Shown: one piece after another, positions 12,498 to 57,690 of the stretch
Position numbering within the stretch: position 1 is the stretch's first letter
Layout: each line of letters begins with the position of its first letter
DNA from: Nitrospirota bacterium
GTDB taxonomy: Bacteria > Nitrospirota > UBA9217
Direction: 5' to 3'
NCBI GenBank assembly: GCA_963790205.1
Contig: CAWBNQ010000005.1
Span: 192,001-256,000, forward strand
DNA length: 64,000 nt
Made by a program: the position numbers and the translations under genes
Notes under the pieces: generated by a model
Databases searched by the model: none
Told to the model about the DNA's origin: nothing
The model's input: the letters and a program-made list of their open reading frames with translations, nothing else

Positions 12498-12824
12498 CTA
12501 TGGCTCTCTCTCCAGGGAATATCCGGTCTTCTTCCACCCCTCGACGCCGCCTGCGAGGACCTTTACGTTCTTGAATCCTTTCTCGGCATATTCCACTGCC
12601 CGACGGGCAGCGCTCGCCTCCTGAGGTCAGGCGCAGTAGAAGATTATCTCTTGTTCCTTCGGCAGCGAAACGGCCCTGTTCTTAAACTCGCTGAACGAGA
12701 GAGCACCTTCGAGGTGCATTCTCTTAAACTTATCCTCGTCGTCATAAGCGCAGACAAAAAGGGCCGTCTTGGTCAGGACTTTTTTTCTTGCTTCTTCCGG
12801 CGGAATTCTTATCGGCTCGGTCAT
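12498..12824 (-). CDS. Rhodanese-like selenoprotein (CxU, Sec at UGA 12627-12629), 108 aa
   Basis: Reading through TGA gives IIFYCA-U-PQEASAARRAVEYAEKGFKNVKVLAGGVEGWKKTGY, which completes the rhodanese fold; stop TAG at 12498; GGAG RBS. Confidence 0.85.
12594..12626 (-). promoter_or_regulatory. Bacterial SECIS-like hairpin
   Basis: After UGA: CGCTGCCC-GTC-GGGCAGTG stem (one G-U pair), loop 23 nt from UGA. Confidence 0.7.
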
Positions 12825-12891
12825 TTTCCCTCTCCAATTAAAAAAAGGAATGCACGCATTCGCGCGCATTCCCCGGAATCGCGAAAGGTCT

Positions 12892-39456: not shown

Positions 39457-40401
39457 TCACATACTGAGTTGCTTTTTGAATTCAGCTAGTGAATGAACAT
39501 AGCGTCGGCTACCAGCATTTTCAGCCGCTTGCAAAATAGCCTTGTCAGTAGATACAAGATGTAACTCTTTATTATCGTCACCTATCATCTGCCCAACGCC
39601 AAATGCGATCTGCATATCCCAAATCCAATTTCTTCGTTCCGGCTTATCTATATTACAACCTGTTTCGACAATCCTTTTTAGTATTTCGCGATAAAGCTGT
39701 ATTGATGTATTAAATTTACCTGAGATCCATTTGGCTTTGGCAGTTATATCGGTTGCGGATTCGTTTCGTTTTGCTTGAACCATTGCTTTTATCACGAAGG
39801 CATGCGCAATGAATGAAGGCATTCCCCTTGAATTAATAGACTCCAGCACAACATTGCGGGTTGATTTATCATTTTCAAGAGGAGCCCACCCGGTCGTCGC
39901 TGGCTTGAGCTGTTGAACGACATACTGCCACATATCTGATACGAATTGAGTTTCAATTTGATCGAGGTGTGACTTTAGCTGCTTGCATTCAATGATTCTT
40001 TTTTCGTCTAGGACACCAGGAGTATTCTCATATATATAACGTGAAAGCTTCGCCAATTGTTCAGTTGTAGTGCTTGATTCAGGAAGGATAATATTGTAAA
40101 GGGCCTTCAAAACCAATGATTCAGAATCCATTATTGTTTTGAGCTGTTCGCCTGAAGAAATAGAACACACATGGTGTTGCGCTCTAAGAGCTAAGCGACA
40201 TTCATCATAATCTGGATCAGTTGTGTCGGCCAAGTGAGCAGCAAGCTCCATCAACACAAAGGGACTTGCATACGCGCCTATATTACGCGATTTCATCGCA
40301 ACTAAGTATTTTTCTATTTCAGCGATCGGGTCTATAACACTGTTTTTGTCTGATATATCGCGATATACGTTTGTGTCGAGCACTACAGCAATGTTATTCA
40401 T
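39457..40401 (-). CDS. PIN-like domain protein
   Basis: VVLDTNV, SPFVLMEL, N...D.QI, LVSTDKAI acidic PIN pattern with a large insertion. Confidence 0.65.
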   Translation of the reverse strand: MNNIAVVLDTNVYRDISDKNSVIDPIAEIEKYLVAMKSRNIGAYASPFVLMELAAHLADTTDPDYDECRLALRAQHHVCSISSGEQLKTIMDSESLVLKALYNIILPESSTTTEQLAKLSRYIYENTPGVLDEKRIIECKQLKSHLDQIETQFVSDMWQYVVQQLKPATTGWAPLENDKSTRNVVLESINSRGMPSFIAHAFVIKAMVQAKRNESATDITAKAKWISGKFNTSIQLYREILKRIVETGCNIDKPERRNWIWDMQIAFGVGQMIGDDNKELHLVSTDKAILQAAENAGSRRYVHSLAEFKKQLSM

Positions 40402-40476: not shown

Positions 40477-40962
40477 CTAGAGTAAATACTCTGTCACGCT
40501 AACACCTTGCAACTTCTCAGGAAGGACATTTAGTGATAGAAAAAATCGAGCAAGTACCACGCGATGGTTGCCGTCTTCAATAAAGTAGTCGTTACCCACT
40601 TTAAAAAAACTCAGTTGATCCTTCGGCGTACGGCTAAGATAGTAGCCTGGATTTGAATGAAGCTCCTTTAACCTTTCCCAGCCTCTTTTCAGGCGACCTT
40701 CTAGCCCACTGAGAGTCCTATTGCAGTTGTCTTCCTCTGTGTAGAGACGATAATCCGAAGGTAAGAGCTCTAACCAGGAATAGCCAGCATAATCACCGTG
40801 TGTCGTGCCGACCACTGCGGATAGAGGTACTGTCCCAGCCTTTATACGGTTAGAGCTTTGATCAAGATATTTTGTGTGATCAAAACTCAATACCTTATTG
40901 AAGGCGAAGTCAGGTGGCCCTTGATTCTCAAGCAATTTGTGGATATCTGGATCGCATATCAT
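40477..40962 (-). CDS. ParB/sulfiredoxin-like protein
   Basis: VPLSAVVGT and YFIEDGNHRV motifs; start uncertain. Confidence 0.6.
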   Translation of the reverse strand: MICDPDIHKLLENQGPPDFAFNKVLSFDHTKYLDQSSNRIKAGTVPLSAVVGTTHGDYAGYSWLELLPSDYRLYTEEDNCNRTLSGLEGRLKRGWERLKELHSNPGYYLSRTPKDQLSFFKVGNDYFIEDGNHRVVLARFFLSLNVLPEKLQGVSVTEYLL

Positions 40963-40969
40963 TAGTTTT

Positions 40970-43042
40970 TCATAGCGGCAAGGACCTGATAGCGCTTGCA
41001 TCCACTACCCCTATATTTCTGCCTAGAAGCATTTCGGAAGACTTCACAGCATTCAGCTTCTGCTTAACATACCGTTTAATTTGAAGTTCTTTTGGAGGAG
41101 CGGTCGTGGTCGTCAATACATACTGAAATGGACAGTCCGTAGGGCCGCCAAAGTGTTCTTGCAATGAAGCGACAAAACGAATAAAACTCTTGTAAATGCG
41201 CAGACCAAGATCAGCCTCACGCGGGCTATCATGGAGAAGGAAGCCGGGCATACATGCATTGTCGGATACAGTATTGTAGATAAGAGAAGCAATATCCGTT
41301 AGGAGCACAGACAACGTTTCTACGGCTTCACCGGTCATGGCTGGCCCGTGAGTGATCGAGAACGCCAATTCACGTTTATCGAGACTTACTTTGCCATCAT
41401 ATGTGCCAGAAGCAAGCACGGCTTTAACAGAAGCAGAGAAGATAGCAGCCAACAAATCACGACTTTCATTGTGTCCCGCAAGAAGCTTTGTCAGGCGCTG
41501 TTCCAACTCTTTAATTTGGCTGGCAGTGTTTTCCTGCTTTTTTCGGCACTCGTCAAGTTCCTTATTAGCGCCAGCCTGATCCCGTTTTGTGTACCCTGTT
41601 TCCAACCCCTCGTATTTCTGCCCTAGTTCTCTTAGCCGACCTTGTCTCCCCTGGATATCGGACTGTATATCAGTTCTCTTTACGTGATATTTGTGCCGCT
41701 CAGTTTTGTGAGCATCAATTTCTCTCTGAATATGCTGTTTTTGCAGGTCAAGATTCTGCTGAGCCTCTACGCGCTGTTCTTGCTTCTGTTTTATCACCTT
41801 TGCATCTTGATGCTGCTTGATCTCAAATAAATTACGCCTTCTCTTAACATGACCACAATCACGATAAAGCACACCTCCGAGCGAGCAAGTCTGATCGCTA
41901 TACTCGTCAAATGCATCAACATTCTTCTGATTTTTACTGAGGCTGGCATCCAATTCTAGAACTGCTGCCTTTTCCACATTAAACGTATTGTCAAGGATCT
42001 TAAGACGCGCCTCAAGCTGCAAAATCTTACCACCATAAAAATCGATCTTTTCTTGATTTGCCGTCTCTTCCTTTTTAAGCAGGGCAATCTCGGTTTCTAC
42101 TTTTTCGGTAGCATTTTTCGTTAGAAGGCTTAGATCAGGCAGTAGATTTCCAGAATGCAGCGGCATCTCAGATATTTGCCGTTCATCAGGCAATAAATCT
42201 TGAAGGCATTTTCGCAATTCTGAATCAAGTCGGTTTATCCAGTATTGCGGCTCTCGCTTGAGTTTTTCATATTCTTTTTCCAAGCTATCATAATTTTGCT
42301 TGAGCGTTACCAGATTCTCCTCGCCTTTCAGCTCATCAGGCAAGAATAAGCCTAACACCGTCCGCATCATGAACAAGGGGTCTGCTTTTGAAGACCTAAA
42401 GGCAGGGGTTTCTGATTCGCTACGAGGTGATCGCCATTCGTGGATATTTTGAAAACGAGACTCCTGGTCGCGTGTACACCATGAGAGGACATGTCCCCAC
42501 TGGATAGGCTCTCCAGCCCGAACAAAAGCGCCTGCGCCTGTACCAAGATCATCAAGCAGCCCATCGAGACCAAGAAGTTCAGTATACGTTTCCACGTATG
42601 CGGGCCTCGAACGGTCCTGTAGAATATCCTCAACGGCTGCGTCTTCTTTGATATATGAATTTCGACCCTTACCTATCGGCCGCAAAACTCCCCACTTTTT
42701 CCCCTTCACGTGGATTTCGGCTGCAATGTAGCCACTTGGAAAAGCATTCTGAATCAATTCGGTGTTGGCCCGTGTTCCATAAGTTTTTTCACCAAGAACA
42801 TATCGCACGAAGCGACAGAAAGTCGTCTTTCCCGCGCTATGACCGGATATTTCAGCCGATGGATCATCGTCCTCGGTCTCCTCTGCCCAAATGATATTAA
42901 GCCCACGTATAAGCTTAATATCACGAATCGTCACAGGATCAGGAGCAATCCGCTCAAAAATGGCTAGACGACTGATCCAGACATTGGGTTCCGTTTTTTT
43001 TGGTTTAAGTTTTAGATCTTTGAAAATATCCATATCCGTCAC
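40970..43042 (-). CDS. SMC-like coiled-coil ABC ATPase (ABC-three-component/Lamassu LmuB-like)
   Basis: Walker A GHSAGKTT, long coiled coil with central C..C (CSLGG..RDC), Walker B FLLHDSPRE, FQYVLTTT. Confidence 0.75.
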   Translation of the reverse strand: MTDMDIFKDLKLKPKKTEPNVWISRLAIFERIAPDPVTIRDIKLIRGLNIIWAEETEDDDPSAEISGHSAGKTTFCRFVRYVLGEKTYGTRANTELIQNAFPSGYIAAEIHVKGKKWGVLRPIGKGRNSYIKEDAAVEDILQDRSRPAYVETYTELLGLDGLLDDLGTGAGAFVRAGEPIQWGHVLSWCTRDQESRFQNIHEWRSPRSESETPAFRSSKADPLFMMRTVLGLFLPDELKGEENLVTLKQNYDSLEKEYEKLKREPQYWINRLDSELRKCLQDLLPDERQISEMPLHSGNLLPDLSLLTKNATEKVETEIALLKKEETANQEKIDFYGGKILQLEARLKILDNTFNVEKAAVLELDASLSKNQKNVDAFDEYSDQTCSLGGVLYRDCGHVKRRRNLFEIKQHQDAKVIKQKQEQRVEAQQNLDLQKQHIQREIDAHKTERHKYHVKRTDIQSDIQGRQGRLRELGQKYEGLETGYTKRDQAGANKELDECRKKQENTASQIKELEQRLTKLLAGHNESRDLLAAIFSASVKAVLASGTYDGKVSLDKRELAFSITHGPAMTGEAVETLSVLLTDIASLIYNTVSDNACMPGFLLHDSPREADLGLRIYKSFIRFVASLQEHFGGPTDCPFQYVLTTTTAPPKELQIKRYVKQKLNAVKSSEMLLGRNIGVVDASAIRSLPL

Positions 43043-46000
43043 CTATGCAGCAAGTGCATATTCTTTGTGTTGCTGATCAAAGATGTGGAGAATAGCCTGT
43101 TGTTCCGGCGATATTAACAAATCGGTCCTGATAGTTTTTATCTGTGCAAGTGCCTTAAGAGCGTATTTAACAACCGCTTCAGCCCCTTCTGGAAATATCT
43201 TCTTTACTTTGAGCAAGTCGAGCCCGCTGTTAATCGTCTGTTCAGCCTGTGCACGTATGATCACTACTGCTTTATGCTGCTCCAGATGACCACGGCAGTC
43301 ACTCCACCGGATTGACTGACCAGTTTCAACAAATAGTCCGCGTGGGGCAGATGCGACCGCCTTTCTGAAACCAGCATGATCTTTCTTATCAAGAAAGGTT
43401 TTGCACCACTCTGGATGAGTAGCCAGAAGTAGAGCGTCAAGGTGATCCATGCTTGATAGGACACCCGCGTATTCCACAATTGATAGCGCAGCTGCACATA
43501 TAGTCCTGTCTGAGACGTTTGCGGGATAGGATGTTGCGGCCAGAGCATCAACATCGATGTCCGGAAGCAATGGCAGGAAGAGACTCTCTGGTCCAACGAT
43601 CTTTACTTTTCGAACTTCCTTTTCTTCCCATAGGCCAGCATTTACCTCTTGCTGGTGAATTTCGTAATTCCGCTTTAAGAGACGCTTAAGTACTTCTTGG
43701 CGAGCACCAGGTGAAATAGTGAACCGAATACGGTCGTTTTCAGAGAGGGTATCGATCTCATAGAAATCATGCCCCAGACTGAGGTTGTTCCAGCCGTAGG
43801 CATCTCGGATAGCCTCATCTAGTTTTTGGTGTAGATAGCGCAGTTCTAGGATGCCTTTATAGCCCGCTTCGGATTCCGCAAGAGTCTTCATGCTGACCTT
43901 GGCAACCGATGAGGGAGTCATGCCTCGGTCATGAAACAGGTTGTATATATCAGTCAGACCCAGCCAAAGTTGACGCATGAGAGTGCTACGATGATCATGG
44001 TAGCGATTACCTATAGAGGTTAGTCCGGCGTTAGTCGTTTGCCACAGTCCTTCAGGAAATGGAAATGTATCAAAACATTTAGATGGCGAATAACGCAAAT
44101 CCTGTTTCAGTGCACCGCTGTATTTACGTGCCCAAGCTTCGTGAAAACCTGACTGGACGACTGCATAGAGATCCCATCGGTCGGTGGTGAAGACTTTTAG
44201 GGCATGAGAGAAAACGATATTTGTTGGGGCCGCAGAGAAGCTAAGGTACTTCGTTGTTGCTGCAGCAACAAAACAATGGGGTAGCCCTTTGATTTTTGAG
44301 GTCATTTCCATGCGCGGCCGAAGGAATATCCACCATTTGCCTTTAGCACCTTTATCATGCTCTTTTTCACGCATTGGCTTTACGCGGTCTTCGACAATCT
44401 TAATCGGTTCAGAATACTTCTGTGCTCTTTCTAAGGGCCAATCGAAAAAATTAATGATTTCTCGCTCAGGTTGCTGTTCTGGATGATTATTAAGTTCATG
44501 CCCGTTGATGATAGGAAAGATTACATCACGATTACGAGGATCCCTATCAATCATACGGCGCGCTTCGTCGTGGTTCAATAAAAAGCCGTCCCCCTGCCAC
44601 TTAGCTCCCTCGTAGAGTACGTCTGCATTCTGTTTCAAAACAAGGGGCGCATCGGTGTCCTGTGAATCCTCAAAATAGGCATTGATCACTGACACTTCCC
44701 GATTGTCAATGAAACATTTGCCCCTCCATTGCCCCTTATGAACGCCAACGAGAGAAACTATTATGTTAGCGCGACCAGGCCACTTAATGCCACGTACAAC
44801 AAAGTTTATTGCGCCCCCCTGAACTATCACCTGCTCAAGCCCGTCTTTTCTGATGTCACCATCCTTGATTGAGTTGGTTGTAATTAGGGCAGTGATGCCG
44901 TCTGGACTGAGCAGAGTGTAAATACGTCGAACGAAATACGCTACCAAATCGCTCAATCCGGTCGGGGCATACTCCCACTTGACGTAATTGCAGAAAGAAT
45001 AGCCGTAAGTACCGCTCAGATGGGTTCCGCCCAAATACGGCGGGTTACCAAGAATGCAATCGAAACCGCCTCGTTCAATGATGTCTGGAAATTCTAGAAA
45101 CCAGTGGAAGAAACGTTTACCATGAGCTATCGACCAAGCCTCCGCAGTCGATTGTCCCTGAGGATGACGCTCTCCAGACCAGTAGAGACGGAAATCGCTA
45201 TCGGTGGTTAGTTTTGGCTGGTTTTCAGTCGTTTTGGGCAAGTAAAACTGAGCAATAGGAATGGCTGCGATTTGTTCGAGCAGTATGGCGTCAGTACTAT
45301 TTGTAAACTCTATATAGCGCTGCTTCTTAATGTCGAATTCGGAAGGTGTCCGATCAGGCAAATTAGAAAGCTCACGCCAACGAGTTAGGACGGCATCACG
45401 ATGCCTCAGAATTTCCGAAGAGTAATTGAGTGTTACCTGCTTTATATTTGCGCGATCTGATTTATTGCGCCTGCGGAATGCCACTGATATGTCTTTGTCA
45501 TCACCAGGCATGGTGATGAATGCCTCATCAGGCACGCCTCTAATGACGTCCTCCCAACGAGCATAGCCGACAATTGCATTGCCGCACTTGATATGATGAT
45601 CAAGGAAGTTGAGTGGCTCTCCAGGGTTGTGGGCTTCCAGCCAAAGGGCAACTTTGCAAAGTTCCACCGCGAGTGGATTCAAGTCCACACCGTAGATACA
45701 TTCACGGATTACGTCCCGAACAGCTGTGCGAAAGGCCGCTGGTGATGGTTGCTCCTCACCTGTGCGGACAGCAGCCAGTTCCGTAGCAATTCGCCGGGCA
45801 GCAGCCAGCAGGATATGACCGGATCCACAAGAGATATCTGCCACACGTAAGGAAAGCAACGCTTTTTCACGATCCGATTCCTTGAGCTTGTCGGCAATAA
45901 GATAATCAAGGGAATGCTTGATTAAAGGTTGAACCAGATCATCCGGTGTGTAGTGGGAACCGGTAACAGCGCGTTGATCGCCCGGCGCGAAATCGAACTC

Positions 46001-47326
46001 CACCACGCCTTCGCTTTGAATAAATACGGGTTTATATTCCAGTAGCCCCTCATAGACTGAGCCAAATTCTTCGACATTGAGAGCGGCGTAGTTGACGCGG
46101 ATCACCTGACCTGTGTCAGGATGCTGGTAAAGACCAAGCGAACGCAGACAGCCGAGGAGCACATCATTGCCGAGGGTGCAGCCACCGAGTTGACCGATGG
46201 CAAAGGGGCTGAACAGGTCCCCTGCCAACGGTGCGATTCCAAGTTTTTGACCAGGACCACCGGCTTCAAAAAGACGAAAAGTAGTCAGCAATGAAAGCCA
46301 ATGGTCATTCTTGCGGCGGTCGGCTAAATAACGCTTCTCGGAGAGGCGGCGCAGGCGCTGGAGGCTGTAGTAGTGCTCGTATATATCTCGTTTAGAGGCG
46401 TCCGACTTTACGGGAAAGACAAGGCCGCGCTCCTCGATCACCATCAGGAAGAGGAGGCGATAGATCAGCCGTAGCAGGTGTTGGTAGTAGGCATCAGGTT
46501 CCAGTTCGTCGGAGACCACTGTTTGACGAAGTGAATCGTTGGCGGGATGAGCAAGAAACCCATTTGCAAATTCACGGATAGCACTCTCGACCGCACGGCT
46601 CAAACCATCGCGGATGCGCGCGCCGGAATCAAGGGAGTCTTGGTGATAACGCTCAATAATGCACTCTGCCGAAGTTTCGGGCGAGACAGGCAGCCTTGAT
46701 GCATGCAACAGTCGATAAAGAACAGCAAAATCGGCAAACAAACCGTCGTTGAAGATCCTATCAAGATCGAACTCCAGGTAGGTCAGTTTGACAAGTCGCG
46801 AACTATCACGCAGCAGACGAAGCACTCGGCCGTTTGTTACAAGACCGTACAGTCCATCCGTAAGGTTGAGATACTCTTGCACCATTCCATGCGCAGACAT
46901 GCGTAGGACGGCTTTTTCGGGCTTCCTATCCAGCCCCGCCGGCTCGCGATAACCGACGATATGAACTGGGATACGTCCACGATTACTAAGACGGTGGGAG
47001 ATAGCATAAGTCTTACCATTCAATTCCACGCTCTTTTGCTGGTATTCAAGCTCGTAGCCAAGCAAAGAAAGAAACGGGACTACCCAGAGACTGCGCGTTT
47101 CCGTCGTGGCTGGATTATCGACTTTGACCGCTTCCAATTTTCGCTGAAAAATACGCCAATAGTCCTGTGCATCAGCCCAGGCACGGACAATTTCATCTTT
47201 CACCTTTCTGGATGAGTCGAAACCAAAGTCTAGCGGACGTTGGCCGTTAGCTTCTTCGAGCCGAGTCAGAATGTCAGGTGAAAGGATGGCTCCTTCTATG
47301 CGGATGCTTGGATAGTTCATAGGCAT
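43043..47326 (-). CDS. Large N6-adenine DNA methyltransferase (Eco57I/type IIG, DrmMI-like) with an extra C-terminal domain
   Basis: EEFGSVYEGLL, GSHYTP, DISCGSGH, IYGVDLNP, GNPPY, RYSPS.CF.TFPFP TRD. Confidence 0.9.
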   Translation of the reverse strand: MPMNYPSIRIEGAILSPDILTRLEEANGQRPLDFGFDSSRKVKDEIVRAWADAQDYWRIFQRKLEAVKVDNPATTETRSLWVVPFLSLLGYELEYQQKSVELNGKTYAISHRLSNRGRIPVHIVGYREPAGLDRKPEKAVLRMSAHGMVQEYLNLTDGLYGLVTNGRVLRLLRDSSRLVKLTYLEFDLDRIFNDGLFADFAVLYRLLHASRLPVSPETSAECIIERYHQDSLDSGARIRDGLSRAVESAIREFANGFLAHPANDSLRQTVVSDELEPDAYYQHLLRLIYRLLFLMVIEERGLVFPVKSDASKRDIYEHYYSLQRLRRLSEKRYLADRRKNDHWLSLLTTFRLFEAGGPGQKLGIAPLAGDLFSPFAIGQLGGCTLGNDVLLGCLRSLGLYQHPDTGQVIRVNYAALNVEEFGSVYEGLLEYKPVFIQSEGVVEFDFAPGDQRAVTGSHYTPDDLVQPLIKHSLDYLIADKLKESDREKALLSLRVADISCGSGHILLAAARRIATELAAVRTGEEQPSPAAFRTAVRDVIRECIYGVDLNPLAVELCKVALWLEAHNPGEPLNFLDHHIKCGNAIVGYARWEDVIRGVPDEAFITMPGDDKDISVAFRRRNKSDRANIKQVTLNYSSEILRHRDAVLTRWRELSNLPDRTPSEFDIKKQRYIEFTNSTDAILLEQIAAIPIAQFYLPKTTENQPKLTTDSDFRLYWSGERHPQGQSTAEAWSIAHGKRFFHWFLEFPDIIERGGFDCILGNPPYLGGTHLSGTYGYSFCNYVKWEYAPTGLSDLVAYFVRRIYTLLSPDGITALITTNSIKDGDIRKDGLEQVIVQGGAINFVVRGIKWPGRANIIVSLVGVHKGQWRGKCFIDNREVSVINAYFEDSQDTDAPLVLKQNADVLYEGAKWQGDGFLLNHDEARRMIDRDPRNRDVIFPIINGHELNNHPEQQPEREIINFFDWPLERAQKYSEPIKIVEDRVKPMREKEHDKGAKGKWWIFLRPRMEMTSKIKGLPHCFVAAATTKYLSFSAAPTNIVFSHALKVFTTDRWDLYAVVQSGFHEAWARKYSGALKQDLRYSPSKCFDTFPFPEGLWQTTNAGLTSIGNRYHDHRSTLMRQLWLGLTDIYNLFHDRGMTPSSVAKVSMKTLAESEAGYKGILELRYLHQKLDEAIRDAYGWNNLSLGHDFYEIDTLSENDRIRFTISPGARQEVLKRLLKRNYEIHQQEVNAGLWEEKEVRKVKIVGPESLFLPLLPDIDVDALAATSYPANVSDRTICAAALSIVEYAGVLSSMDHLDALLLATHPEWCKTFLDKKDHAGFRKAVASAPRGLFVETGQSIRWSDCRGHLEQHKAVVIIRAQAEQTINSGLDLLKVKKIFPEGAEAVVKYALKALAQIKTIRTDLLISPEQQAILHIFDQQHKEYALAA

Positions 47327-50202
47327 GCCTCGGCATTCCCGCCATCAGGGAGGAGAATGTAAACACCGAGAAGATCCATTGGCAATACCGGATAAACGAC
47401 CTGAAAACGTTTTGCATCCATAAGTGAACTGAAACGTTCATGGGATTCGACGAGCCGCTTTGATTGTTGCTCGGCAACCTTATCGAACTCTCCTCTTAAA
47501 TTATCAAGAAGTTTAAGTTCGTTTTCCAAGAAACCGGTGCGCGCCTGTGGGGTGAGTTCGGAAGACGCACGGGCCTCGGCCAACAAAACCCTTGCCTGGC
47601 CGTGTTCGAGAAACTCCTTGTCCTGCGGTGTGCCGCGCCATCCCCAGAGCAGCATTTCCTCAGCTACGATCTGGTGTTCACCTTTGCTCTGCTCTATCAC
47701 GTTGCGACATCGGAAAAGCAGCAATGTAGTCTTGGTCTTTACCTGCTTGGTGCGAATGATGGCTGCGCGCGCCGCACATTTATCCACGCGAGCGAGGGTA
47801 TTGGCCATGACAAGCTGACAAAGTTGTTCTACAAAACGGTGGTTACGCCCCAGGTAATGGTAGCCATCGGACGTGGGTGACCGGAAGCTTACTTTGACTG
47901 GATCGCCTTGTGGCAGTAAATCCCTCAACTGGGGCGACATGTTACCCATGACGATTCGGTAACCCTTGGCATCCTTGGTGACCTGCACACCAAGCAGGTT
48001 GTTCAGAACAGAGGTCACGAACTCTTCCACTGCTTTGGGATCGCCTATGGCTTCATCCATCTCACGAAGGTCAGCTTCGATCTCTTGAGCCTTAATGGCA
48101 TTCTGGGCGAAGATGCTACGGGATGCCTTTTCTCTCTCTGCGGCTTCGTCAACTTTGCGGGTGACACTTGCCTTAGCCGAGGCGGCTTCATCAAAACTAC
48201 TGAAGTCGAATTGGATCTGGTGCTTATCACGTTTTTTTTCGATCTGGCGATCAGGATTGAGCAGCAAGGCCTGGGTAATCGTGTCTATGATACTTTGAGA
48301 ATCCTCTGGAAAAGGAACATTGATGCCGGTAGCGCGCTTGATCTCGCGAACCTTGCGTAAGAGCACATCGAGAACGATGCCGTCTATCGGGTTATCCGCC
48401 CCGTAGAGTAGACAAGCCTTTACCTTCGGGGCCATCTGGCCGAATCGATCCACGCGGCCTTCTCGTTGCTCAAGCCGGTTCGGATTCCATGGCAAGTCGT
48501 AATGGAGAACACCGGTAAAGTGTTCTTGCAGATTGATACCTTCGCTCAGGCAGTCGGTTGCAATTAAGATGCGCAACTGAGACTTTCCCATTGCATCTAT
48601 GTGCTGCTTGCGCAGCTCGTCAGGAAGTTCACTCGTTATGACTTGAAGGTCGAGCTTCGGATACTTCTTTTTGAGCGCCGTTTCGAGTTGTGCGCCGATA
48701 TAGTTAGCTGTGGCGATATAACGGCAGAAAACAACTGGGTTGAAGCCTTGCTTTAACCAGTCTTCCAGAATCAGTTCGGCTGAAGCAAGTTTTTGGTCAT
48801 CTTTGATCGAGCTCAATTGCTGCAGTTGCTGGGAGAAGTACCGCATGCGTTCGCGTTGGTGTTTTGTCCAATCATTCCGCTCGATGACCTGAGTGGGCGC
48901 GTTGTCACCTTCGAACCCAAATTCAGTATCACGAACTGGGTTTTCCTCAAACGTTTCCTCACCCGCTAAGGCAGTTTCTGCGTCATCTTTCGCAGCAGAT
49001 GCGAGGTTAGAAAGCCTGGTGTTGAGCATCTCGATACCAGCAGCGGGGCTAGACATCACACCACGCAATAGTGCGAGTGCAGTCCAATATTGGACCCGCT
49101 TCTGGACGCCTCGTTCGGAGTCCGGAGCGATTAGCTTACGAGCAAAGTCGAGGATTTCGTCAAAAAAGTGAGAATAGCTGGTTGAGAGGTCATAGGCCCA
49201 CTCGAAAGCTTCACGCTCAGGGAATGGCGTGTCTTCCCCCATCCATTTTTCGACATCGGCCCGCTTGCGCTGAACAAAGTGACGTGCCAGATCGCGGCGC
49301 TGTGCTTGCGAGGAACTGGGAAGGTCAATCATCTCGAATTCCGGACTGAGCAGGCCGAGCAACGAATGAAATTCCTCGGGCTTCCCGCTGTGCGGTGTGG
49401 CGGTGAGCATGATAAGCTGCTGGTTCGGCTTCTCGGCGATTCTGCTGACAAGATGGTAGCGTTGTTGCTGGCTGGCAGAAGCGCCGGTAGGCCGTGCGCA
49501 GGTATGGGTTTCGTCCACGATCACCATTTCTGGACACTGCTCGACAAATACATCGCGCCTGGTATCGGACTTGATGAAATCAATGCTGATGACTTGGTAA
49601 GGATAGTAATCATAGACACTTGTGTCACCCTGTATCTGCCGGTCGAGTCGTGCCTGGGTGTTGGAGCGAATGATGACCGCCTCAATATCGAGCTTAGCAC
49701 GAATCTCGGCCTGCCACTGTTCGCAGAGATGAGGCAGACATATTACGGCAAAGCGTTTGATCTTGCGTCGCTCCAACAGTTCTTTAACGATGAGCAACGC
49801 CTCTACTGTCTTTCCTACACCGACATCATCGGCAATGAGCAAACGTACCGATTCCTGACGCAAGGCCATGATAAGCGGCACCATCTGGTAGGAACGCGGC
49901 CGGAAGGAGAGTTTTGCCAGGGCGCGAAACGGGCCGGCGCCGTTGCGAAAAGCCAAACGAGCGGAGTCATAGAGCAAGCGGGCTGTGCTGATATCTCCGA
50001 GGTCCAATGCCCCTGGCGACGGAAAGCTCGCATCCTCGGGTTGGTCGGCTTCAATGCCCAGCGGCAGATAAATACCTGCGGTTTCATCGTCAGAGCCACC
50101 AAGCGGTTTGACGATCAAAAGATCTTTATCATCTGATGGGAGGACGATCCAGTCGCGTCCACGGAGGGAGACTAACTTTCCCGGTTGAAGTTGTACTGTC
50201 AT
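47317..50202 (-). CDS. SNF2-type helicase (DrmD-like)
   Basis: DDVGVGKT, DETH, TATPH, YDLPWNPNRLEQREGRVDRFGQ. Confidence 0.9.
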   Translation of the reverse strand: MTVQLQPGKLVSLRGRDWIVLPSDDKDLLIVKPLGGSDDETAGIYLPLGIEADQPEDASFPSPGALDLGDISTARLLYDSARLAFRNGAGPFRALAKLSFRPRSYQMVPLIMALRQESVRLLIADDVGVGKTVEALLIVKELLERRKIKRFAVICLPHLCEQWQAEIRAKLDIEAVIIRSNTQARLDRQIQGDTSVYDYYPYQVISIDFIKSDTRRDVFVEQCPEMVIVDETHTCARPTGASASQQQRYHLVSRIAEKPNQQLIMLTATPHSGKPEEFHSLLGLLSPEFEMIDLPSSSQAQRRDLARHFVQRKRADVEKWMGEDTPFPEREAFEWAYDLSTSYSHFFDEILDFARKLIAPDSERGVQKRVQYWTALALLRGVMSSPAAGIEMLNTRLSNLASAAKDDAETALAGEETFEENPVRDTEFGFEGDNAPTQVIERNDWTKHQRERMRYFSQQLQQLSSIKDDQKLASAELILEDWLKQGFNPVVFCRYIATANYIGAQLETALKKKYPKLDLQVITSELPDELRKQHIDAMGKSQLRILIATDCLSEGINLQEHFTGVLHYDLPWNPNRLEQREGRVDRFGQMAPKVKACLLYGADNPIDGIVLDVLLRKVREIKRATGINVPFPEDSQSIIDTITQALLLNPDRQIEKKRDKHQIQFDFSSFDEAASAKASVTRKVDEAAEREKASRSIFAQNAIKAQEIEADLREMDEAIGDPKAVEEFVTSVLNNLLGVQVTKDAKGYRIVMGNMSPQLRDLLPQGDPVKVSFRSPTSDGYHYLGRNHRFVEQLCQLVMANTLARVDKCAARAAIIRTKQVKTKTTLLLFRCRNVIEQSKGEHQIVAEEMLLWGWRGTPQDKEFLEHGQARVLLAEARASSELTPQARTGFLENELKLLDNLRGEFDKVAEQQSKRLVESHERFSSLMDAKRFQVVYPVLPMDLLGVYILLPDGGNAEACL

Positions 50203-53200
50203 CGCACCTTCCTGAAAATATCCGGACGGGCTGCTATTTTCTCGGCCAGGCTATCCCGATAGTAGTATACCCAGACTTCATCGCCGCGGGCAATGATGGA
50301 CTGACGCTTGGATTCATCATCCTCCCGAACCTGCGGTTCATCGTGGGGGGTGCCGTCGCAGAAGACCCAGATACGCGGTTCGTAGTAAAAGTCCGGTTGC
50401 ACATAAATGCCATCAACACGCTTCTGAGCTGCGTCGGGCAATCGCAGGCCATTCTGATAGAGGTAATCCAGGAACTTTCGCTCTGTCGACGATGTGGGAT
50501 CGAGTCCTCGGGAGATGGTTTGATACTGGTCCTCGTAGCTGCCGAATCCTGTATTCGTCTGGATCTCAATATTACAGATGCGCAATTTCTCAAGAGCGTC
50601 CTTGATGAGATGTCGGTCTATGATCTTATGGTCGCGCTGGTTGTAGTAACTCAGAAGATCGTCATAGCTTGCCGGTCCTTTGTAGTTCTCATCGTCGTAT
50701 CGGCACAGAGTGATCGCCTGCTCTACGACTTTATGAAAAGCCTCCACGTCTTCAACAAATTGCGAAAGGATACCAAGGCTGCCTTCTGCTGCTTCATAGA
50801 GAAGGATGTTAGGCGCTTCAGGATCACCCACAGTGACCACACCGATCTCATTGGGCTCGGCCTGGAACACGCTTTCGATGGCGCGCTTCAGCGCATGCTG
50901 CAAGGTGATGACACCCTCGGGATTCAGTCCAAGTGGCTGTATCGGCTCGATATGCAGTGCATCGGCCAAATTCGAGGTCCAGAGCTTAACGAGTCGGAAT
51001 TCCTCTCTTGGATTTTCCTCCGGATCCGGCATTGAGTCTCGCCAGTCGCCGGATACCAATCCGATGGGGAAACCCTCGGCCTGTCGCGATCGCCACTGAT
51101 AATTGACATGAACCAGACGAGCCGCAGGCACGTAACGAAGATTCAGGAAGTTATTTTCAGCCGTACGCGCCGCGGCTTTACGCACGCGCTCCAGATGGCC
51201 GCCATCAACGGAGAAATAGGTCCTGATATTGTACCCGCGGGATACCCGCTCTTCCTCTTCGCAAGAAATCCGGTCAACCTCTTCGGCGCGCGACTCGGCC
51301 ATTTCCAGCAGATCATGAAGATGTTCCTTATTTGCGTTATCAGCGAGGTTGCAGCCGGTGAAAGGACAGATTTCGAGATCTTTCTGCTCATCCGTCAGGA
51401 AGTACCCGGCTTTTGTGCTGATCTTCACCTCGGTCAGTGCGGACTCCGCGTCTTGGACCACTAATTGGGTAACTTTGTATTTACGGCCGTTATGGTAGAT
51501 ACGGTTTAGTGGACCGAACTCTCGCATAGCAATGGCGCGCGGACGCGAGATGAACTCGCCGGAGGCATCGCTGGTGGGTAGGAAGATACGAAGCGGCAAT
51601 CGGGTGAAATTGTACCCGGGCAGAAACCCTTCCGAGGCCAGGTATCTATAGGGATAAAATTCGGATAATTCTGTTGACCTGCCAAGGTCGTTACGCAGAA
51701 GATCAAGCTGGCGGGTGGCCTGATCCTGGTTTCTCTTTTGTTTTTTGTAGTCGTCACTGCCCAGACCAAGTGTACCACTTTCGATCTTCTGTGTAGCCTT
51801 TGTAAGGATCGTTCTAGCCGAGCGATATAGTTTTCTCCAACGGTCAATAGCTTCGTTAAGATGATCAGCCAGTTTTGACAAGTTATGTTCGACCCACTGA
51901 TCCGAATACCAGCTTGCAGCCTTTGTCTCGAGCTCGGGAGCAAAATCCCTGATCACTCTCCTGAATTCTGCCTTGAGCGTGTTGAACTGGTTCGGCTGAA
52001 TGCTGAGGCCGGAGCGAACCGCAGGTGTAAGCGGCATCTTATCGTTGTCATCAACGATGAACCGCATAATAGACGGCCGGGCTTCTCCCTGAGCTTCCAG
52101 ACCAGGCAGGCCGATCTCAGATACGGTTAGGGCGTTCAGGTGCGTCAGCAATAATTCGCGATTACAGAGATCGAGACGAGGAGCCTGTACCACTCCGGCT
52201 ACGAGTTCAGCCTGGTGCTGAAAGTAGTGACGGTCATGAGGCGAGTAGCTTGAGCAGTAGGTGAATACCAGCGCACCTTGTCCGCTTCGCCCCCCACGGC
52301 CTGACCGCTGGGCGTAATTCGCAGGATTGGGAGGCGCATTGCGGAGATGCACAACATTCAGACCGCCAATATCGATTCCTAATTCCATGGTTGGCGAACA
52401 AAACAATGCGCTTACCGATTCACTTCGAATACGCTTTTCATCAAGCTCCTTCTTGGCTTCGTCGAGATACCAATCGGCACGAAAGCGGTCTTCCCTATCC
52501 AGACGGGCTTCGGTGTTCAATTGCCCAGTATGATCTTCAGCTCGCAGCCTTTTAGTCAAAGAGAAGTCGCGCCGGTACATATCTCTGAAAAACGCATTCG
52601 GCCTGGGTGTTTGGTCCTTGTAAGAGCGCCGCTTTATAACGTCGGACTTTACTGTTTTGCCATCGCCGAGCTTCCAAACGATCTTCTCGATCTTGAGGCG
52701 ATAAATCGGTATTTCTTCGTTCTTATCGCTGCGTGCGAGTTGAGACTTGAGATAATCCGCCTGTTCCAGCTTCGTCATCAGCTGGACAATGAAGTTCCGA
52801 TAGTGGTCGCCCTTAAGATTAATCTCCAGCCCACGTTGCCGGACATAGAGTTTAATGAACTTGCCCAGCGCACTGGCCGGTCCCATGCTTTTTGAAAAGA
52901 GTTTTGCGGAGCGGTGCAGTGGCTCATAGCGGATGACAAAAGGTTCCCGTAATCGCTCTTTCTGGTCCAAGGTCCAGGGAGGACGCAGCATCTCAATGAA
53001 CTGCTTTTCGTTTTCTCTGATCGCATTCTGTGTAAGATAGTTCTCGCTATGGATGGCGTATTCAAGGCGGAAGAAATCGAGAATCGTGCAGACAAACTCT
53101 CTGCGGTCGGCATGACTTAAAGCGCTCAAAAGCGGAATGTCCCGCCAGAAGGTATCCTCTGCAGCGACTTCATCCAAGTCCAGATATTCTATGGATAGCA

Positions 53201-55364
53201 AAGCGCATTGCTCCAAGTTCGGCAGGATGATTCGCCAGCTTCGCCGTAGATCCGCAATAGCGCGGTAGAATAAGTAAGTCTGGAAGCACTGCTCATATCG
53301 TCGTCTGACATTTGCCAGCGGCGGCTCTACGTTGGGGGTAGAATAGTCCAGAAACGACAGGCCAAGCGCTCTAAATACCGCCTCGCCAAGATTGGCATAC
53401 GTGAGGGTATTCCCGGAAGCTTCGTGAAGAGCTTTGTAAATGCCGGCACGAAGGCGGACCACTTGCACGAAATCGTTGAAATGACCGGCCTGGAGCGCGG
53501 CATCTTGTCTGTTGTCGGTAAAACTCAGCAGCTTTTGATCTTTCGGACGATATCCGGCATCATTCAGCTGATTAAGGATCGAGAACGCCATAATGGTCGT
53601 TGAGGTGCTGCGTCCCTCACTGCCCAGTTTTGTCAGCTTTGTACCTTCGTTCGTTTTCGTGTCAAAGAAGACACCGCCTGTTGGGTCAAAAAGCAGTGGG
53701 GCCTTCATGAACCATCCCCACCATTTCAGAGGTTTGGTTTCAGAACAATTTCCAAGCTCATCAAAATGGAGCTTAACGGGAAACAAGGTTTTCTTTTTCG
53801 AATCCGGAACCGGTCCGTTTTTTGTCATTCTCAGCCAGGAGTCCGGCAAAAATTCGAAGTCCTCGGCTAGTTCCCAGACATCTTCGCCGACAATGAGATA
53901 GCCATCTGTCGCTTCTTCATCTTCTTCTGTTTTTTCCCGAAACTCTCGCGGTTCCAGCCGATTGCCGACTCTGGACACACATATGAACGCATGTCCCGTG
54001 GCCCGGCTGAACACATTTGGAAAGAGAGGCTTTTTGTCCCCTTCGTCCTTTTTGAAGATACCCGGCTCCAGAGTAACATAGCGATTCTCGTCCTGATCGA
54101 GTGTAGTATAGACCGATCCTGTTTGAGAGATGAACTGATGCAGTTTAAAAGGTAGGATCGTGTAACGTTGCCTGGCTTCCTGCATTCGTTTGTTCACGAT
54201 GCTGATCCACTGCATAAGATCGACGAGGAACTGTCTGCAGATCGTTTCTGACAACCTGGTTTCTTGCATCAGCATAGCGACGATCGTGCCGATCCGCTGG
54301 GGGGTGCGCCGAATAAGATGGCCATCGTGCGTATCCAGCGCGACATTATTTTCAATCCAGACAGCAACGGGGTTGGCCTTCAAACGCTCAATGTCGTCTT
54401 CTGCGTTAATACCCGCCTTTATGGCTGCGGCGAGCTCCGCGCCCGATGGCAATCTACCGGAGAATGACACCGAACGGGCCAAAGTCTCGTTTATGACTTG
54501 TTCCGGCGTAAATGGCTTACCAAAAAGCGTAGTGGCAACTTTAGCGACCTGTTCGCGTTGCGAAGCGGGACTCCCGACGGAAACCATAGTGGCCGAGGTA
54601 CCGATGCAGGTCACCTCTCGGCTGCATTTGGAGCGGATGCGGCGGATCAACATAGCCACATCAGCGCCTTGGCGTCCACGGTAGGTATGGAGTTCGTCGA
54701 AAACGAGAAAACGCAGGTTGCTGTATATGGAATCACGAATGGAACGCTCCCGAACGCGAGTCAGGAGCAATTCCAGCATCATATAGTTGGTCAGGAGAAC
54801 GTGCGGAGGATTCTCGCGCATCTTTTGGCGTGCCTCTTCCTTCTCCTGTCCGGTATATTGCCCAAAGGTTATTGGGAATCCTCTCGCGCCGCTTTCGTAA
54901 TTAGCTTTGTAGCGGTTAAACTCTTCCGATTGAGAATTGATCAGAGCGTTCATCGGATAAACCACGATGGCTGTTACGCCCGATGTCCCGGGATGGGAGA
55001 GCAAATGGTGGAAGATCGAGCCTATATAGGTCAGAGACTTGCCGGATCCCGTACCAGATGTGACGATGAAATCCCTGCCTGCGGTCCCAAGACGTATTGC
55101 TTCAACCTGGTGCCGGTACAGTGTATATCCTTTAAAGATGTCCGCCGTGTCGGCATGTAAGGCGCCGGACCGTGCAAGATCCGAGACGCTGCCAGACATC
55201 TCGTATGCGGGGTTAAATTGCAAGAGAGGCTCGGGCCACAGTTTACCAACGCGAAGATCCCCTTCTACTACCGCCCGTAAAGTCGGATCGGCAATATTAA
55301 GGAAGCTGCGAATATAGGTCGCGTAGTCCGAAACGATATGCGAGTGCGTCTTGAAAACGTTCAT
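50199..55364 (-). CDS. DEAH helicase + DUF1998 + C-terminal DUF559/Vsr-like nuclease
   Basis: GTGSGKS, DELH, SAT, FTDNRQDAA, QRSGRGGR, HAL..AI..LYE..EG..G, PDFYY....VFCDG.PHD. Confidence 0.9.
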   Translation of the reverse strand: MNVFKTHSHIVSDYATYIRSFLNIADPTLRAVVEGDLRVGKLWPEPLLQFNPAYEMSGSVSDLARSGALHADTADIFKGYTLYRHQVEAIRLGTAGRDFIVTSGTGSGKSLTYIGSIFHHLLSHPGTSGVTAIVVYPMNALINSQSEEFNRYKANYESGARGFPITFGQYTGQEKEEARQKMRENPPHVLLTNYMMLELLLTRVRERSIRDSIYSNLRFLVFDELHTYRGRQGADVAMLIRRIRSKCSREVTCIGTSATMVSVGSPASQREQVAKVATTLFGKPFTPEQVINETLARSVSFSGRLPSGAELAAAIKAGINAEDDIERLKANPVAVWIENNVALDTHDGHLIRRTPQRIGTIVAMLMQETRLSETICRQFLVDLMQWISIVNKRMQEARQRYTILPFKLHQFISQTGSVYTTLDQDENRYVTLEPGIFKKDEGDKKPLFPNVFSRATGHAFICVSRVGNRLEPREFREKTEEDEEATDGYLIVGEDVWELAEDFEFLPDSWLRMTKNGPVPDSKKKTLFPVKLHFDELGNCSETKPLKWWGWFMKAPLLFDPTGGVFFDTKTNEGTKLTKLGSEGRSTSTTIMAFSILNQLNDAGYRPKDQKLLSFTDNRQDAALQAGHFNDFVQVVRLRAGIYKALHEASGNTLTYANLGEAVFRALGLSFLDYSTPNVEPPLANVRRRYEQCFQTYLFYRAIADLRRSWRIILPNLEQCALLSIEYLDLDEVAAEDTFWRDIPLLSALSHADRREFVCTILDFFRLEYAIHSENYLTQNAIRENEKQFIEMLRPPWTLDQKERLREPFVIRYEPLHRSAKLFSKSMGPASALGKFIKLYVRQRGLEINLKGDHYRNFIVQLMTKLEQADYLKSQLARSDKNEEIPIYRLKIEKIVWKLGDGKTVKSDVIKRRSYKDQTPRPNAFFRDMYRRDFSLTKRLRAEDHTGQLNTEARLDREDRFRADWYLDEAKKELDEKRIRSESVSALFCSPTMELGIDIGGLNVVHLRNAPPNPANYAQRSGRGGRSGQGALVFTYCSSYSPHDRHYFQHQAELVAGVVQAPRLDLCNRELLLTHLNALTVSEIGLPGLEAQGEARPSIMRFIVDDNDKMPLTPAVRSGLSIQPNQFNTLKAEFRRVIRDFAPELETKAASWYSDQWVEHNLSKLADHLNEAIDRWRKLYRSARTILTKATQKIESGTLGLGSDDYKKQKRNQDQATRQLDLLRNDLGRSTELSEFYPYRYLASEGFLPGYNFTRLPLRIFLPTSDASGEFISRPRAIAMREFGPLNRIYHNGRKYKVTQLVVQDAESALTEVKISTKAGYFLTDEQKDLEICPFTGCNLADNANKEHLHDLLEMAESRAEEVDRISCEEEERVSRGYNIRTYFSVDGGHLERVRKAAARTAENNFLNLRYVPAARLVHVNYQWRSRQAEGFPIGLVSGDWRDSMPDPEENPREEFRLVKLWTSNLADALHIEPIQPLGLNPEGVITLQHALKRAIESVFQAEPNEIGVVTVGDPEAPNILLYEAAEGSLGILSQFVEDVEAFHKVVEQAITLCRYDDENYKGPASYDDLLSYYNQRDHKIIDRHLIKDALEKLRICNIEIQTNTGFGSYEDQYQTISRGLDPTSSTERKFLDYLYQNGLRLPDAAQKRVDGIYVQPDFYYEPRIWVFCDGTPHDEPQVREDDESKRQSIIARGDEVWVYYYRDSLAEKIAARPDIFRKVR

Positions 55365-55856: not shown

Positions 55857-56900
55857 CTAGAGAAAATTGGGTGACACTTTTCCGTTGATCGTAACGGTAA
55901 TAAACCCTTTCATCCTCAGCCAGGCCTCGACGGCGATCCGCCAGGCTGCTTGCGACTGAACACTACCATCACTGCATAGTATATCACCTTGCAAGTTTGT
56001 CATCCAGTCATAGGCAGCGCTCCTTTCCCATTTGGTAAACGTTTTTTTGTTCGTGAAGTACACTTGGCAGGCGTTGCCGCCATGCAGGCACGGACGGGGT
56101 TGGTGGTTAAGGTCATGTTCAACCGTCGATGCATATGCCTCCATGTGCTCGCGCGGACAACTGGACTTATACAAGAGTTTTGCAGCAAGCCCGTTCTTCA
56201 GCTCGGTTTGTGCCTCTTCGATCGCGCCGTTGTAGGGCGGATAATGGACTGGACTGTTCAACGGCAGGACGAAGTAGTCGGCGAGCACAGCATTGACCGC
56301 TGCATGATTCAGGTTCGCGCCATTGTCGCGCTTGAGGAACAGAGGCGCACCGAAGCGATCGAAGGTCGCTGCGAGATAGCCGGATATCTCTTCGCCGCAG
56401 GGCACATCTCCCGTCATAGGAGTGAACTTGTAGCGAGACGCGAGGTCCTGCATATGGTTCAGGTACACCTTGCCACCGTCTGTGTCACGATGTTTGTATT
56501 CACAGGGGTCCATTGACCACGCGACGTTTGGCACGTTCCAGCTGATCCGCCGCAGATTCTGACGATGGAGTGTATTGAGGTCATGCCTCGCCATAGCGAC
56601 CATGCTCTGCAGGTCTCGCCGTGACACAGAGGACGCGTGGCTCCCGTATAATGCGCCCGTGCCCTGCGTGCGGCTCTGCCCGTGAGACAGCTTTGCGATA
56701 TCCCCTGTAATCCCCTCAAGATCCGGAGGCTTGACCTTGGGAGGACCCGGTTGCCGCACGAGGGGCGTGGCGTTCTTCTGTCGCAGACGCCAACGGATAA
56801 AGCTCGGGTAGGGGAGCCTCACGGCACTGCAGATCTCCTGGTAGTGCATACCGGTTTTCTCTCTCATCCGGTCAACAACGGCAAGCATACTGGTTATCAT
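55857..56900 (-). CDS. rve/DDE-type transposase
   Basis: WSMD, LKRDNG.N, SP...P.YNGAIE. Confidence 0.85.
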   Translation of the reverse strand: MITSMLAVVDRMREKTGMHYQEICSAVRLPYPSFIRWRLRQKNATPLVRQPGPPKVKPPDLEGITGDIAKLSHGQSRTQGTGALYGSHASSVSRRDLQSMVAMARHDLNTLHRQNLRRISWNVPNVAWSMDPCEYKHRDTDGGKVYLNHMQDLASRYKFTPMTGDVPCGEEISGYLAATFDRFGAPLFLKRDNGANLNHAAVNAVLADYFVLPLNSPVHYPPYNGAIEEAQTELKNGLAAKLLYKSSCPREHMEAYASTVEHDLNHQPRPCLHGGNACQVYFTNKKTFTKWERSAAYDWMTNLQGDILCSDGSVQSQAAWRIAVEAWLRMKGFITVTINGKVSPNFL

Positions 56901-57294: not shown

Positions 57295-57690
57295 TTATGG
57301 GGTCTCAGCCTTGCGCAGGGGGGAGCTTTCGGGCTTCAGGTCCTTTAGCTTCTCCGGTTTCCTTGCTTCCTGCGCCTTCGACAGCGTCTTTTCCAGCCTG
57401 TTCTGTACCGGGAGCATCAGGCGCTTTTTCTCCAGCATCGTCTGCAGCCGCGGGCTGAGCGCCGGCCCCTTGTCCAGGATCACCCGGGGTTCCAGAGCCT
57501 GGAGCATTCCCTCCATCGCCCGTTTCTGCCACTGGGAGAGCACCATCCACGGTATCCCCATCTCCCGGCATACTTCCGCCGGCCTCCGCCGCTCCGTCCA
57601 TATTGAGAGAACCGCCCGGCATTTCTCCATCGCCCCGTGGTTTGTCATCTGCCGCTTCTTCTCGCTTTTTATCTTCTCCGTTTTTTCCAT
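57295..57690 (-). CDS. HTH-like protein of the transposon, overlapping the transposase tail
   Basis: KC.AVLSIW.ERR...EVCRE.GI....L.QWQ.RAMEGML.ALEP; abuts the next gene. Confidence 0.7.
   Translation of the reverse strand: MEKTEKIKSEKKRQMTNHGAMEKCRAVLSIWTERRRPAEVCREMGIPWMVLSQWQKRAMEGMLQALEPRVILDKGPALSPRLQTMLEKKRLMLPVQNRLEKTLSKAQEARKPEKLKDLKPESSPLRKAETP

Follow-up and report, generated by a model that had tools for sequence, protein, structure and literature searches.

A conserved C-terminal domain of an ARMADA-like methyltransferase as a putative docking adaptor for a Lamassu-like ATPase

A large methyltransferase encoded in the genome of a Nitrospirota bacterium (GenBank assembly GCA_963790205.1, contig CAWBNQ010000005.1) continues past the end of the known methylase and is followed immediately by a gene for a coiled-coil ATPase. 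What is this C-terminal extension, hereafter called the tail, and does it connect the two proteins? The gene lies in an operon resembling the ARMADA Type I defence system, within a stretch of 64,000 nucleotides (positions 192,001 to 256,000 of the contig; hereafter the window, with positions counted from its first letter). An earlier note on this DNA, made from the letters alone, suggested that the tail is a fused middle component of the ATP-binding cassette (ABC)-three-component (ABC-3C) type, similar to LmuC of Lamassu, and that it could tether the ATPase to the methylase complex. Our analysis favors, with a probability of roughly 0.7, the reading that the tail is a separate folded domain and a putative docking adaptor, which tethers an LmuB-like ATPase of the SMC (structural maintenance of chromosomes) type to the methylase. 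The features concerned are as follows.

43043-47326, minus strand: full open reading frame (ORF) of the methyltransferase including the tail, 1427 aa
43616-47326, minus strand: methyltransferase proper, residues 1-1237; Pfam Eco57I, MmeI_Mtase and MmeI_TRD, PADLOC DrmMI (E-value 3.8e-213)
43559-43615, minus strand: linker, residues 1238-1256; pLDDT (predicted local distance difference test) of 69-77, outside the envelope 1257-1426 of the hidden Markov model (HMM) of the tail
43046-43558, minus strand: tail domain, residues 1257-1427; 75 relatives, model pLDDT 92.5; proposed docking adaptor for the ATPase
40970-43042, minus strand: LmuB-like (Lamassu/ABC-3C-type) coiled-coil ABC ATPase, 690 aa counted from GTG

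The tail as a domain and its link to the ATPase

The methyltransferase comprises an N-terminal region, an N6-adenine methylase of the Eco57I/MmeI type, an MmeI-type target recognition domain (TRD) and terminal helices. Its Pfam domains stop at residue 1092 (MmeI_TRD) and the best PADLOC profile, DrmMI, ends at residue 1237, which corresponds to position 1326 of the 1347 positions of the profile; residues 1238-1427 therefore lie outside the known methylase, and they have no counterpart in Pfam, NCBIfam or PADLOC at E-values of up to 10. The extra C-terminal stretch of ~190 aa described in the earlier note is real, and the strings quoted for it (RQEVLKRLLKRNYEIHQQE, DRTICAAALSIVE and LDALLLATHPEW) are found in the 1427-aa ORF. 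A phmmer search with the tail against 1.84 billion representative sequences reported 75 relatives with E-values of at most 1e-3, including 26 with E-values of at most 1e-30; judged by these relatives, the tail is a conserved family and not a chance extension. It occupies the C-terminal end in 72 of the 75, while in the remaining three (P0007, P0009 and P0077) it is followed by other sequence.

The AlphaFold model of the tail, built from a 23-sequence alignment, has a mean pLDDT of 92.5. It begins with a linker of ~20 residues (residues 1-21 of 190, with the low pLDDT given above), which leads into a folded part (residues 22-189) made of helices and a beta hairpin (helix 104-113, strands 117-119 and 128-130). 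The previous description of a helical domain is borne out as far as the helices are concerned, but the domain is not purely helical, since the combination of helix and beta hairpin in the model corresponds to a winged-helix element.

The methylase stop codon TAG (43043-43045) directly meets a GTG triplet (43040-43042), as was observed before. The assignment of this GTG as the start of the ATPase gene, however, is doubtful: the ATG at 43031-43033 is no less probable and likely the true start; it is preceded by AGGTGA and coincides with the position at which most ATPase homologs start (some of those starts were picked by hand). With either start, the spacing of the two genes is only 0-9 nucleotides.

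The tail and the ATPase occur together. A tail-seeded scan of genome contigs returned 11 loci, all of which encode an ATPase homolog (48-64% identity) 3-12 nucleotides past the stop codon of the tail; the records are Nitrospirota-like or come from Armatimonadota, Thorarchaeota, Desulfuromonadales, Pelotomaculum, Syntrophobacteraceae, Phycisphaerales and Chloroflexota. The corresponding metagenome scan found the ATPase directly after the tail in 15/18 loci (a set that includes two apparent duplicate pairs, with the same hit statistics and 100% identical downstream proteins); two contigs end within the tail, and a single locus (L020, with an HsdS-tail gene) lacks the ATPase. The product of L020 is 99.8% identical to P0005 until residue 579 and then continues in unrelated sequence, and we rejected it as a counter-example, since a locus truncated or chimeric inside the tail is no clean exception. 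The earlier note had considered that its proposal would fall if the tail were found in methylases that have no such ATPase, and among the loci examined there is no clean case of this kind. Conversely, an ARMADA-like methylase is present in 82 plasmid records, but a near-full-length ATPase homolog in only 7, and the tail is missing in all four ATPase-less ARMADA methylases that were sampled (from Nostoc, Thermus, Acinetobacter and Nocardioides; 1291-1331 aa, one of them split), as these stop at the normal terminus and neither of two tail HMMs matches them. Within the phylum of the window, an ATPase homolog was found only in the window's own genome among 401, and near relatives for comparison are consequently lacking.

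When the ATPase served as the seed instead, the searches extended to relatives that are more distant (26-33% identity). One of the loci found in this way, on a viral contig (L034), encodes a 1509-aa methylase that bears the tail (HMM E-value 1.6e-8); a search of viral contigs with the tail alignment itself yielded no match, and neither did tblastn searches of plasmids with the tail from the window or with the HsdS-type tail. Six of the seven plasmid records with a near-full-length ATPase homolog were taken for comparison (from Caballeronia, Paraburkholderia, Agrobacterium, Mesorhizobium and two Rhizobium). The order of one or more helicase genes, methylase and ATPase is kept wherever the record is annotated (four of the six) or its upstream ORFs were listed, and all six methylases possess a domain of the same size past their normal end, collinear with the tail but very divergent in sequence. 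In L033, the same divergent tail forms the end of a Res-like protein of type III, and the ATPase gene comes next.

The evolutionary history of the tail follows that of the ATPase. Mantel correlations of pairwise identity matrices gave r = 0.92 (p = 2e-4, n = 21) for the tail and the ATPase; in the set of 11 loci, r was 0.86 for the tail and the ATPase, only 0.47 for the tail and the methylase core and 0.56 for the tail and the TRD region, while the methylase core and the TRD region correlated with each other at 0.88. Individual pairs agree with this picture: compared with the window, L006, L023 and L026 have methylase cores that are 69-74% identical but tails that are just 35-41% identical, whereas in L002 the core is 56% and the tail 59% identical. 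These differing identities place the boundary between two evolutionary blocks in the linker before the tail. The comparison supports the view that the tail has co-evolved with the ATPase, not with the methylase, and is functionally coupled to the former.

The pair has also been transferred between different host proteins. In loci L027-L030, the tail ends a PglX-type methylase of 1532/1533 aa (Eco57I and DUF7008) encoded beside a PglW-like kinase, and an ATPase with 41-42% identity follows. A Pfam scan of the N-terminal parts of 39 tail-bearing representatives identified type I HsdS (6/39), MmeI/Eco57I methylases, often as fragments (6/39), TaqI_C (2/39), DUF7008 (1/39) and an AAA_21 ATPase (1/39), with no Pfam match in 23/39. 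The HsdS-type fusions are metagenome singletons, as are P0007, P0009 and P0077. At the level of sequence, it is shown that the tail-ATPase pair was grafted onto the ARMADA methylase and the BREX-type PglX and a divergent pair onto a type III Res protein, and that the tail alone was fused to type I HsdS. The tail-bearing ARMADA methylases have either of two TRD types.

Some of the tail-bearing proteins deserve separate mention. Relative to window positions 43616-45031, the target recognition part past approximately residue 764 is swapped in L004, L008, L009, L010, L012 and L018, which keep the N-terminal core and the tail, with the longer methylase forms reaching 1542-1703 aa. P0007, P0009 and P0077 are small proteins in which Cys-rich or coiled-coil sequence comes after the tail; P0009 was considered as a fusion of tail and ATPase and rejected, having no similarity to the ATPase. 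In P0056 the tail is fused behind the AAA_21 ATPase, and in P0010 it comes after 540 residues without a Pfam family.

The identity of the partners and competing readings

The ATPase alignment (19 sequences) reveals the Walker A motif GHSAGKTT, a WCTRDQE motif, the signature SGEA and the Walker B motif LLHDS followed by PREAD, so that no Glu stands in its usual place behind the Walker B Asp; for LmuB, too, a Walker B motif that deviates naturally has been reported. A pair of Cys residues, C386/C396, is invariant in 19/19 aligned sequences and is located at the coiled coil's apex in the model (window positions 41857-41889). With nine residues between them, they may form a variant zinc hook for dimerization, and some short Lamassu systems are reported to have a Zn hook. 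Distant relatives of the ATPase match DUF2326 with E-values of 8e-4 to 5e-3, under the cut-off, while the ATPase of the window has no Pfam DUF2326 match at E-values of up to 10; a comparison of the ATPase profile with PDB sequences gave only coiled-coil noise. In L008, a 175-aa ORF after the ATPase gene (12720-13247) duplicates a C-terminal portion of the ATPase, with 37% identity to residues 493-675 of the latter and a weak DUF2326 match.

A Foldseek search of the PDB with the ATPase model (pLDDT 80) ranked a model of B. subtilis YydD-YydB first (9a6c_A, E-value 1.3e-18), followed at ranks 2-8 by chains of Lamassu LmuACB/LmuAB complexes (E-values 6.8e-14 to 1.1e-9; taken to be LmuB from the chain length); JetC (1e-8), Rad50 (6.2e-9) and SMC all rank after the Lamassu chains. 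The template modeling (TM) scores, 0.36-0.44, are as low as one would expect of flexible coiled coils. According to the model, the fold of the ATPase is nearest, among solved structures, to that of Lamassu LmuB.

The resemblance of the tail to LmuC is suggestive, as far as the model allows. LmuC is described as a globular protein of ~170-180 residues that repeatedly matches helix-turn-helix (HTH) factors, is encoded just before lmuB, and has the coiled coil of LmuB, one head and DNA as its binding partners. The Foldseek comparison of the tail with the PDB proposed in the earlier note returned nothing at E-values of up to 1e-3, while VIA-align reported generic winged helices as the top matches (PadR, MarR, cullin WHB; Z up to 7.3 over 60-97 residues) and found a weak match to LmuC. 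The small subunit of the Vibrio cholerae Lamassu appears twice (9ny5_C, Z 5.7, root mean square deviation (rmsd) 4.6, 127 residues aligned; 9uxh_D, Z 6.1, rmsd 4.2, 122 residues aligned; LmuC identity judged from length and numbering), and these are the two widest alignments among the matches listed, though their scores tie with those of generic winged helices. Chains of ScpB, a winged-helix partner of SMC of the kleisin/KITE kind (6juv_B, Z 5.7, 90 aligned; 6juv_A, Z 6.3, 93 aligned) also occur among many generic winged-helix matches. A Pfam scan of 23 tail members revealed no family matched by more than one of them. In a Priestia megaterium plasmid (L042, 3399-7327), genes for three small unnamed proteins flank that of a bona fide DUF2326 ATPase; the group adjoins a TIR gene and a type I restriction-modification (R-M) system, resembles the classical three-component arrangement and is a possible outgroup.

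Several observations weigh against the proposed adaptor role or the Lamassu assignment. The PADLOC LmuB models miss the ATPase at E-values of up to 10, with only weak coiled-coil matches to JetC and DinG. The LmuC scores of the tail (Z 5.7-6.1) are below 8, in a range called common, and both matches represent one protein. Neither Pfam nor PDB profiles provide a sequence link between the tail and the ABC-3C middle-component or C-terminal domain (CTD) families, and hhalign comparison of the tail with the three small proteins beside the L042 ATPase gave probabilities of at most 0.7%. For the window tail family and the divergent plasmid-type tails, hhalign reported a probability of 1.3% (E-value 0.041), by which homology is unsupported, and we therefore treat L033 and the plasmid loci as positional analogs only. 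Neighboring DNA is trivially co-inherited, which raises the Mantel correlation; as the related loci are, moreover, non-independent, the correlation argues for a functional coupling without proving it. The tail-seeded scans used close-relative patterns, and the co-occurrence counts leave out the HsdS, TaqI_C and AAA_21 fusions as well as P0007, P0009 and P0077. As far as a docking role is concerned, the original proposal is largely upheld: the genetic coupling of tail and ATPase (co-occurrence, co-evolution and joint transfer between hosts), the Lamassu-like fold of the ATPase and the position of the tail before an LmuB-like gene are retained, while homology to LmuC, with weak Z scores and no sequence link, is unproven.

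If the tail is a docking adaptor, it would bind the ATPase dimer at the coiled coil and/or the head, in the way LmuC and LmuA's C-terminal domain bind LmuB. Through the ATPase, a sequence-specific machine of methylase, helicase and nuclease would then gain a Lamassu-style sensor of invading DNA (ends, replication structures), and the ATPase would either license this machine or direct it to foreign DNA; in some relatives, the nuclease gene encoded behind the ATPase may be under its control as well.

The docking role of the LmuA C-terminal domain fits the tail as well as that of LmuC. The corresponding scenario, which we regard as unlikely in its full form, makes the tail the equivalent of that domain, and the methylase, HsdS, PglX or Res protein the effector of a two-gene, type I Lamassu-like pair; that the ATPase holds this effector inactive and frees it upon sensing foreign DNA is, in our estimate, just as unlikely. 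A variable N-terminal enzyme with a conserved C-terminal domain, followed by an LmuB-like gene, is the architecture described for LmuA-LmuB, the N-terminal partner of the tail does vary, and no separate small gene lies between the methylase and the ATPase. However, the 50 structural matches listed in either comparison include LmuC and no LmuA chain (weak evidence in itself), and the short LmuA C-terminal domains are reported to be bundles of 5-6 helices without a hairpin, whereas the tail has a winged helix.

The genes behind the ATPase bear on a different possibility. An HNH_2 endonuclease gene (~250 aa), often overlapping the ATPase stop codon, comes right after the divergent-type ATPase in L032, L035, L038, L039, L040 and L041, and its product is a candidate linked effector. 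In the subfamily of the window, the ATPase is followed by a toxin-like gene with HEPN/RES-NTD1 and RES domains in L006 (12600-13805), L011 (5495-6709) and L022 (2869-3501). GmrSD follows the ATPase in L027/L028 and in L036, Schlafen/AlbA_2 in L033 and OLD in L029/L030. The tail could be a built-in perch, from which the ATPase watches the recognition subunit and triggers a linked nuclease or toxin once a phage anti-restriction protein attacks this subunit, in parallel to PrrC with EcoprrI and PARIS with Ocr. The hosts of the tail are indeed recognition subunits of modification-dependent systems and a nuclease or toxin gene often lies behind the ATPase, but the downstream gene is not conserved, the downstream ORFs of the window lack both a known domain and relatives in the 29 loci, and many downstream genes belong to complete independent systems (Gabija-like, SbcCD, prokaryotic Argonaute (pAgo)) typical of defense islands; we consider such guarding rather improbable. 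Two further loci illustrate this defense-island context, with a 1250-aa reverse-transcriptase-containing gene after the ATPase in L026 (10566-14318) and a DEAD-HIRAN helicase together with a Piwi protein in L012 (8684-14693).

Finally, the tail could be a mere DNA-binding winged-helix extension of the methylase beside an independent, embedded defense gene, in keeping with its best structural matches (generic winged helices of the PadR and MarR kind), the C-terminal winged HTH (wHTH) reported for BrxX (PMC12839542) and the reported frequency of embedded genes in such systems, but this is very improbable, as it leaves unexplained why the tail is missing in 4/4 sampled ATPase-less homologs, tracks the ATPase and not the methylase, and accompanies the ATPase in its transfer to unrelated host proteins.

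The operon in relation to known defense systems

The methyltransferase and the ATPase belong to a series of six closely spaced genes on the minus strand, extending from 55364 down to 39457. The other members are:

50199-55364, minus strand: YprA-like DEAD/DEAH helicase with an MrfA Zn-binding (DUF1998-type) domain, 1721 aa; Pfam DEAD, Helicase_C and MZB, top PADLOC match DruE; the leading gene of the operon
47317-50202, minus strand: SNF2/BrxHII-like helicase, 961 aa; Pfam SNF2-rel_dom and Helicase_C, PADLOC DpdE/DrmD/BrxHII; NCBIfam DISARM_DrmD with an E-value of 4.2e-90, under the cut-off of that model
40477-41001, minus strand: 174-aa ORF, overlapping the end of the ATPase gene by 32 nucleotides; no Pfam, NCBIfam or PADLOC match
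39457-40401, minus strand: 314-aa ORF of an unnamed hypothetical family; no significant family match, weak PADLOC match to Orf5 (E-value 0.0011)

The nearest Atlas clusters of the 314-aa ORF are unnamed hypotheticals. Neither of the two small ORFs has a counterpart in 29 related loci (searched by tblastn for the 174-aa ORF), and since they are not conserved there, we rejected them as candidates for a conserved third component and consider their membership in the system doubtful. Two transposase-like genes with an integrase core (rve; 55857-56900 and 57305-58696) are located just upstream of the operon, which suggests that the island is or was mobile.

ARMADA Type I consists of a YprA-like helicase, a BrxHII-like helicase and a PglX-like methylase, encoded in this order, according to the main text of Bell et al. 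2025 (PMC12458937). The operon of the window has the same composition and gene order, judged from domain matches against that description and not from an ARMADA HMM, and differs from it by the additional methylase tail and ATPase gene. The main text of PMC12458937 does not contain the term SMC and mentions neither a tail on the Type I methylase nor a fourth gene for an ATPase, and the census of plasmids given above (82 records vs. 7) indicates that most ARMADA-like plasmid methylases occur without either.

With type II Lamassu and ABC-3C systems (LmuA-LmuC-LmuB; DdmABC of Vibrio cholerae) the window shares the ATPase fold, in which the Walker B motif is deviant and the coiled coil may bear a Cys hook, as well as a globular HTH-like unit of ~170 residues encoded directly before the ATPase. 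Here, however, the small unit does not exist as a protein of its own but forms part of a large methylase, and the upstream gene encodes that methylase and not an LmuA with a Cap4, Sir2 or similar effector; the methylase with its tail may stand in for LmuA. The partner is of a modification-based, non-abortive type and not a suicide effector.

The arrangement is also reminiscent of the C-terminal, Rad50/SbcC-binding domain of Mre11/SbcD, from which the long LmuC proteins have been proposed to derive: in both cases, an enzyme whose gene lies just ahead of that of an SMC-like ATPase carries a C-terminal appendage, which tethers (in our case, would tether) the enzyme to the ATPase. The host enzyme of the tail is nevertheless a methylase and not a nuclease, and no structural or sequence match of the tail to SbcD/Mre11 is found among the matches listed. 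Another ABC-type ATPase embedded in an R-M locus is PrrC, which is physically associated with the type Ic enzyme EcoprrI. PrrC has its own anticodon nuclease and no coiled coil, and to our knowledge no fused adaptor is known on the R-M subunit of that system. A winged helix after the TRD of a PglX-type methylase, comparable to the position of the tail, is described for BrxX in PMC12839542, where it is a part of ordinary type 1 BrxX, with no link to an ATPase; the tail of L027-L030, in contrast, lies past a complete PglX (including DUF7008) and is accompanied by the ATPase.

We found no published account of such an addition of a tail and an ATPase to methylases, including in passages from PMC12458937, PMC12839542, 10.1101/2025.04.02.646746 and 10.1101/2024.01.29.577857. 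Lamassu and ARMADA are each known separately; what appears to be new is the fusion of the small component of a Lamassu/ABC-3C-type module to modification enzymes.

A wider proposal, which we put forward only tentatively, is that the Lamassu-type SMC sensor is a portable plug-in, attached via an LmuC-like adaptor fused to the DNA-recognition subunits of ARMADA, Pgl/BREX-type, type I and type III systems. Such a hybrid could couple the sensing of invading-DNA structures, such as ends and replication intermediates, to sequence-specific restriction, or could guard the subunit against anti-restriction proteins.

Lamassu, which senses DNA structures and kills the cell, and restriction-like systems, which read the methylation of a motif, are regarded as separate branches of immunity. 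If the docking role of the tail is true, a built-in adaptor would physically bridge the Lamassu-type ATPase and the recognition subunits of ARMADA, BREX-type and classical R-M systems. The tail is compact and well predicted, and is hence accessible to pull-downs, structure determination and domain swaps, and it would provide a testable handle on those roles of the ARMADA and BREX methylases that are other than methylation.

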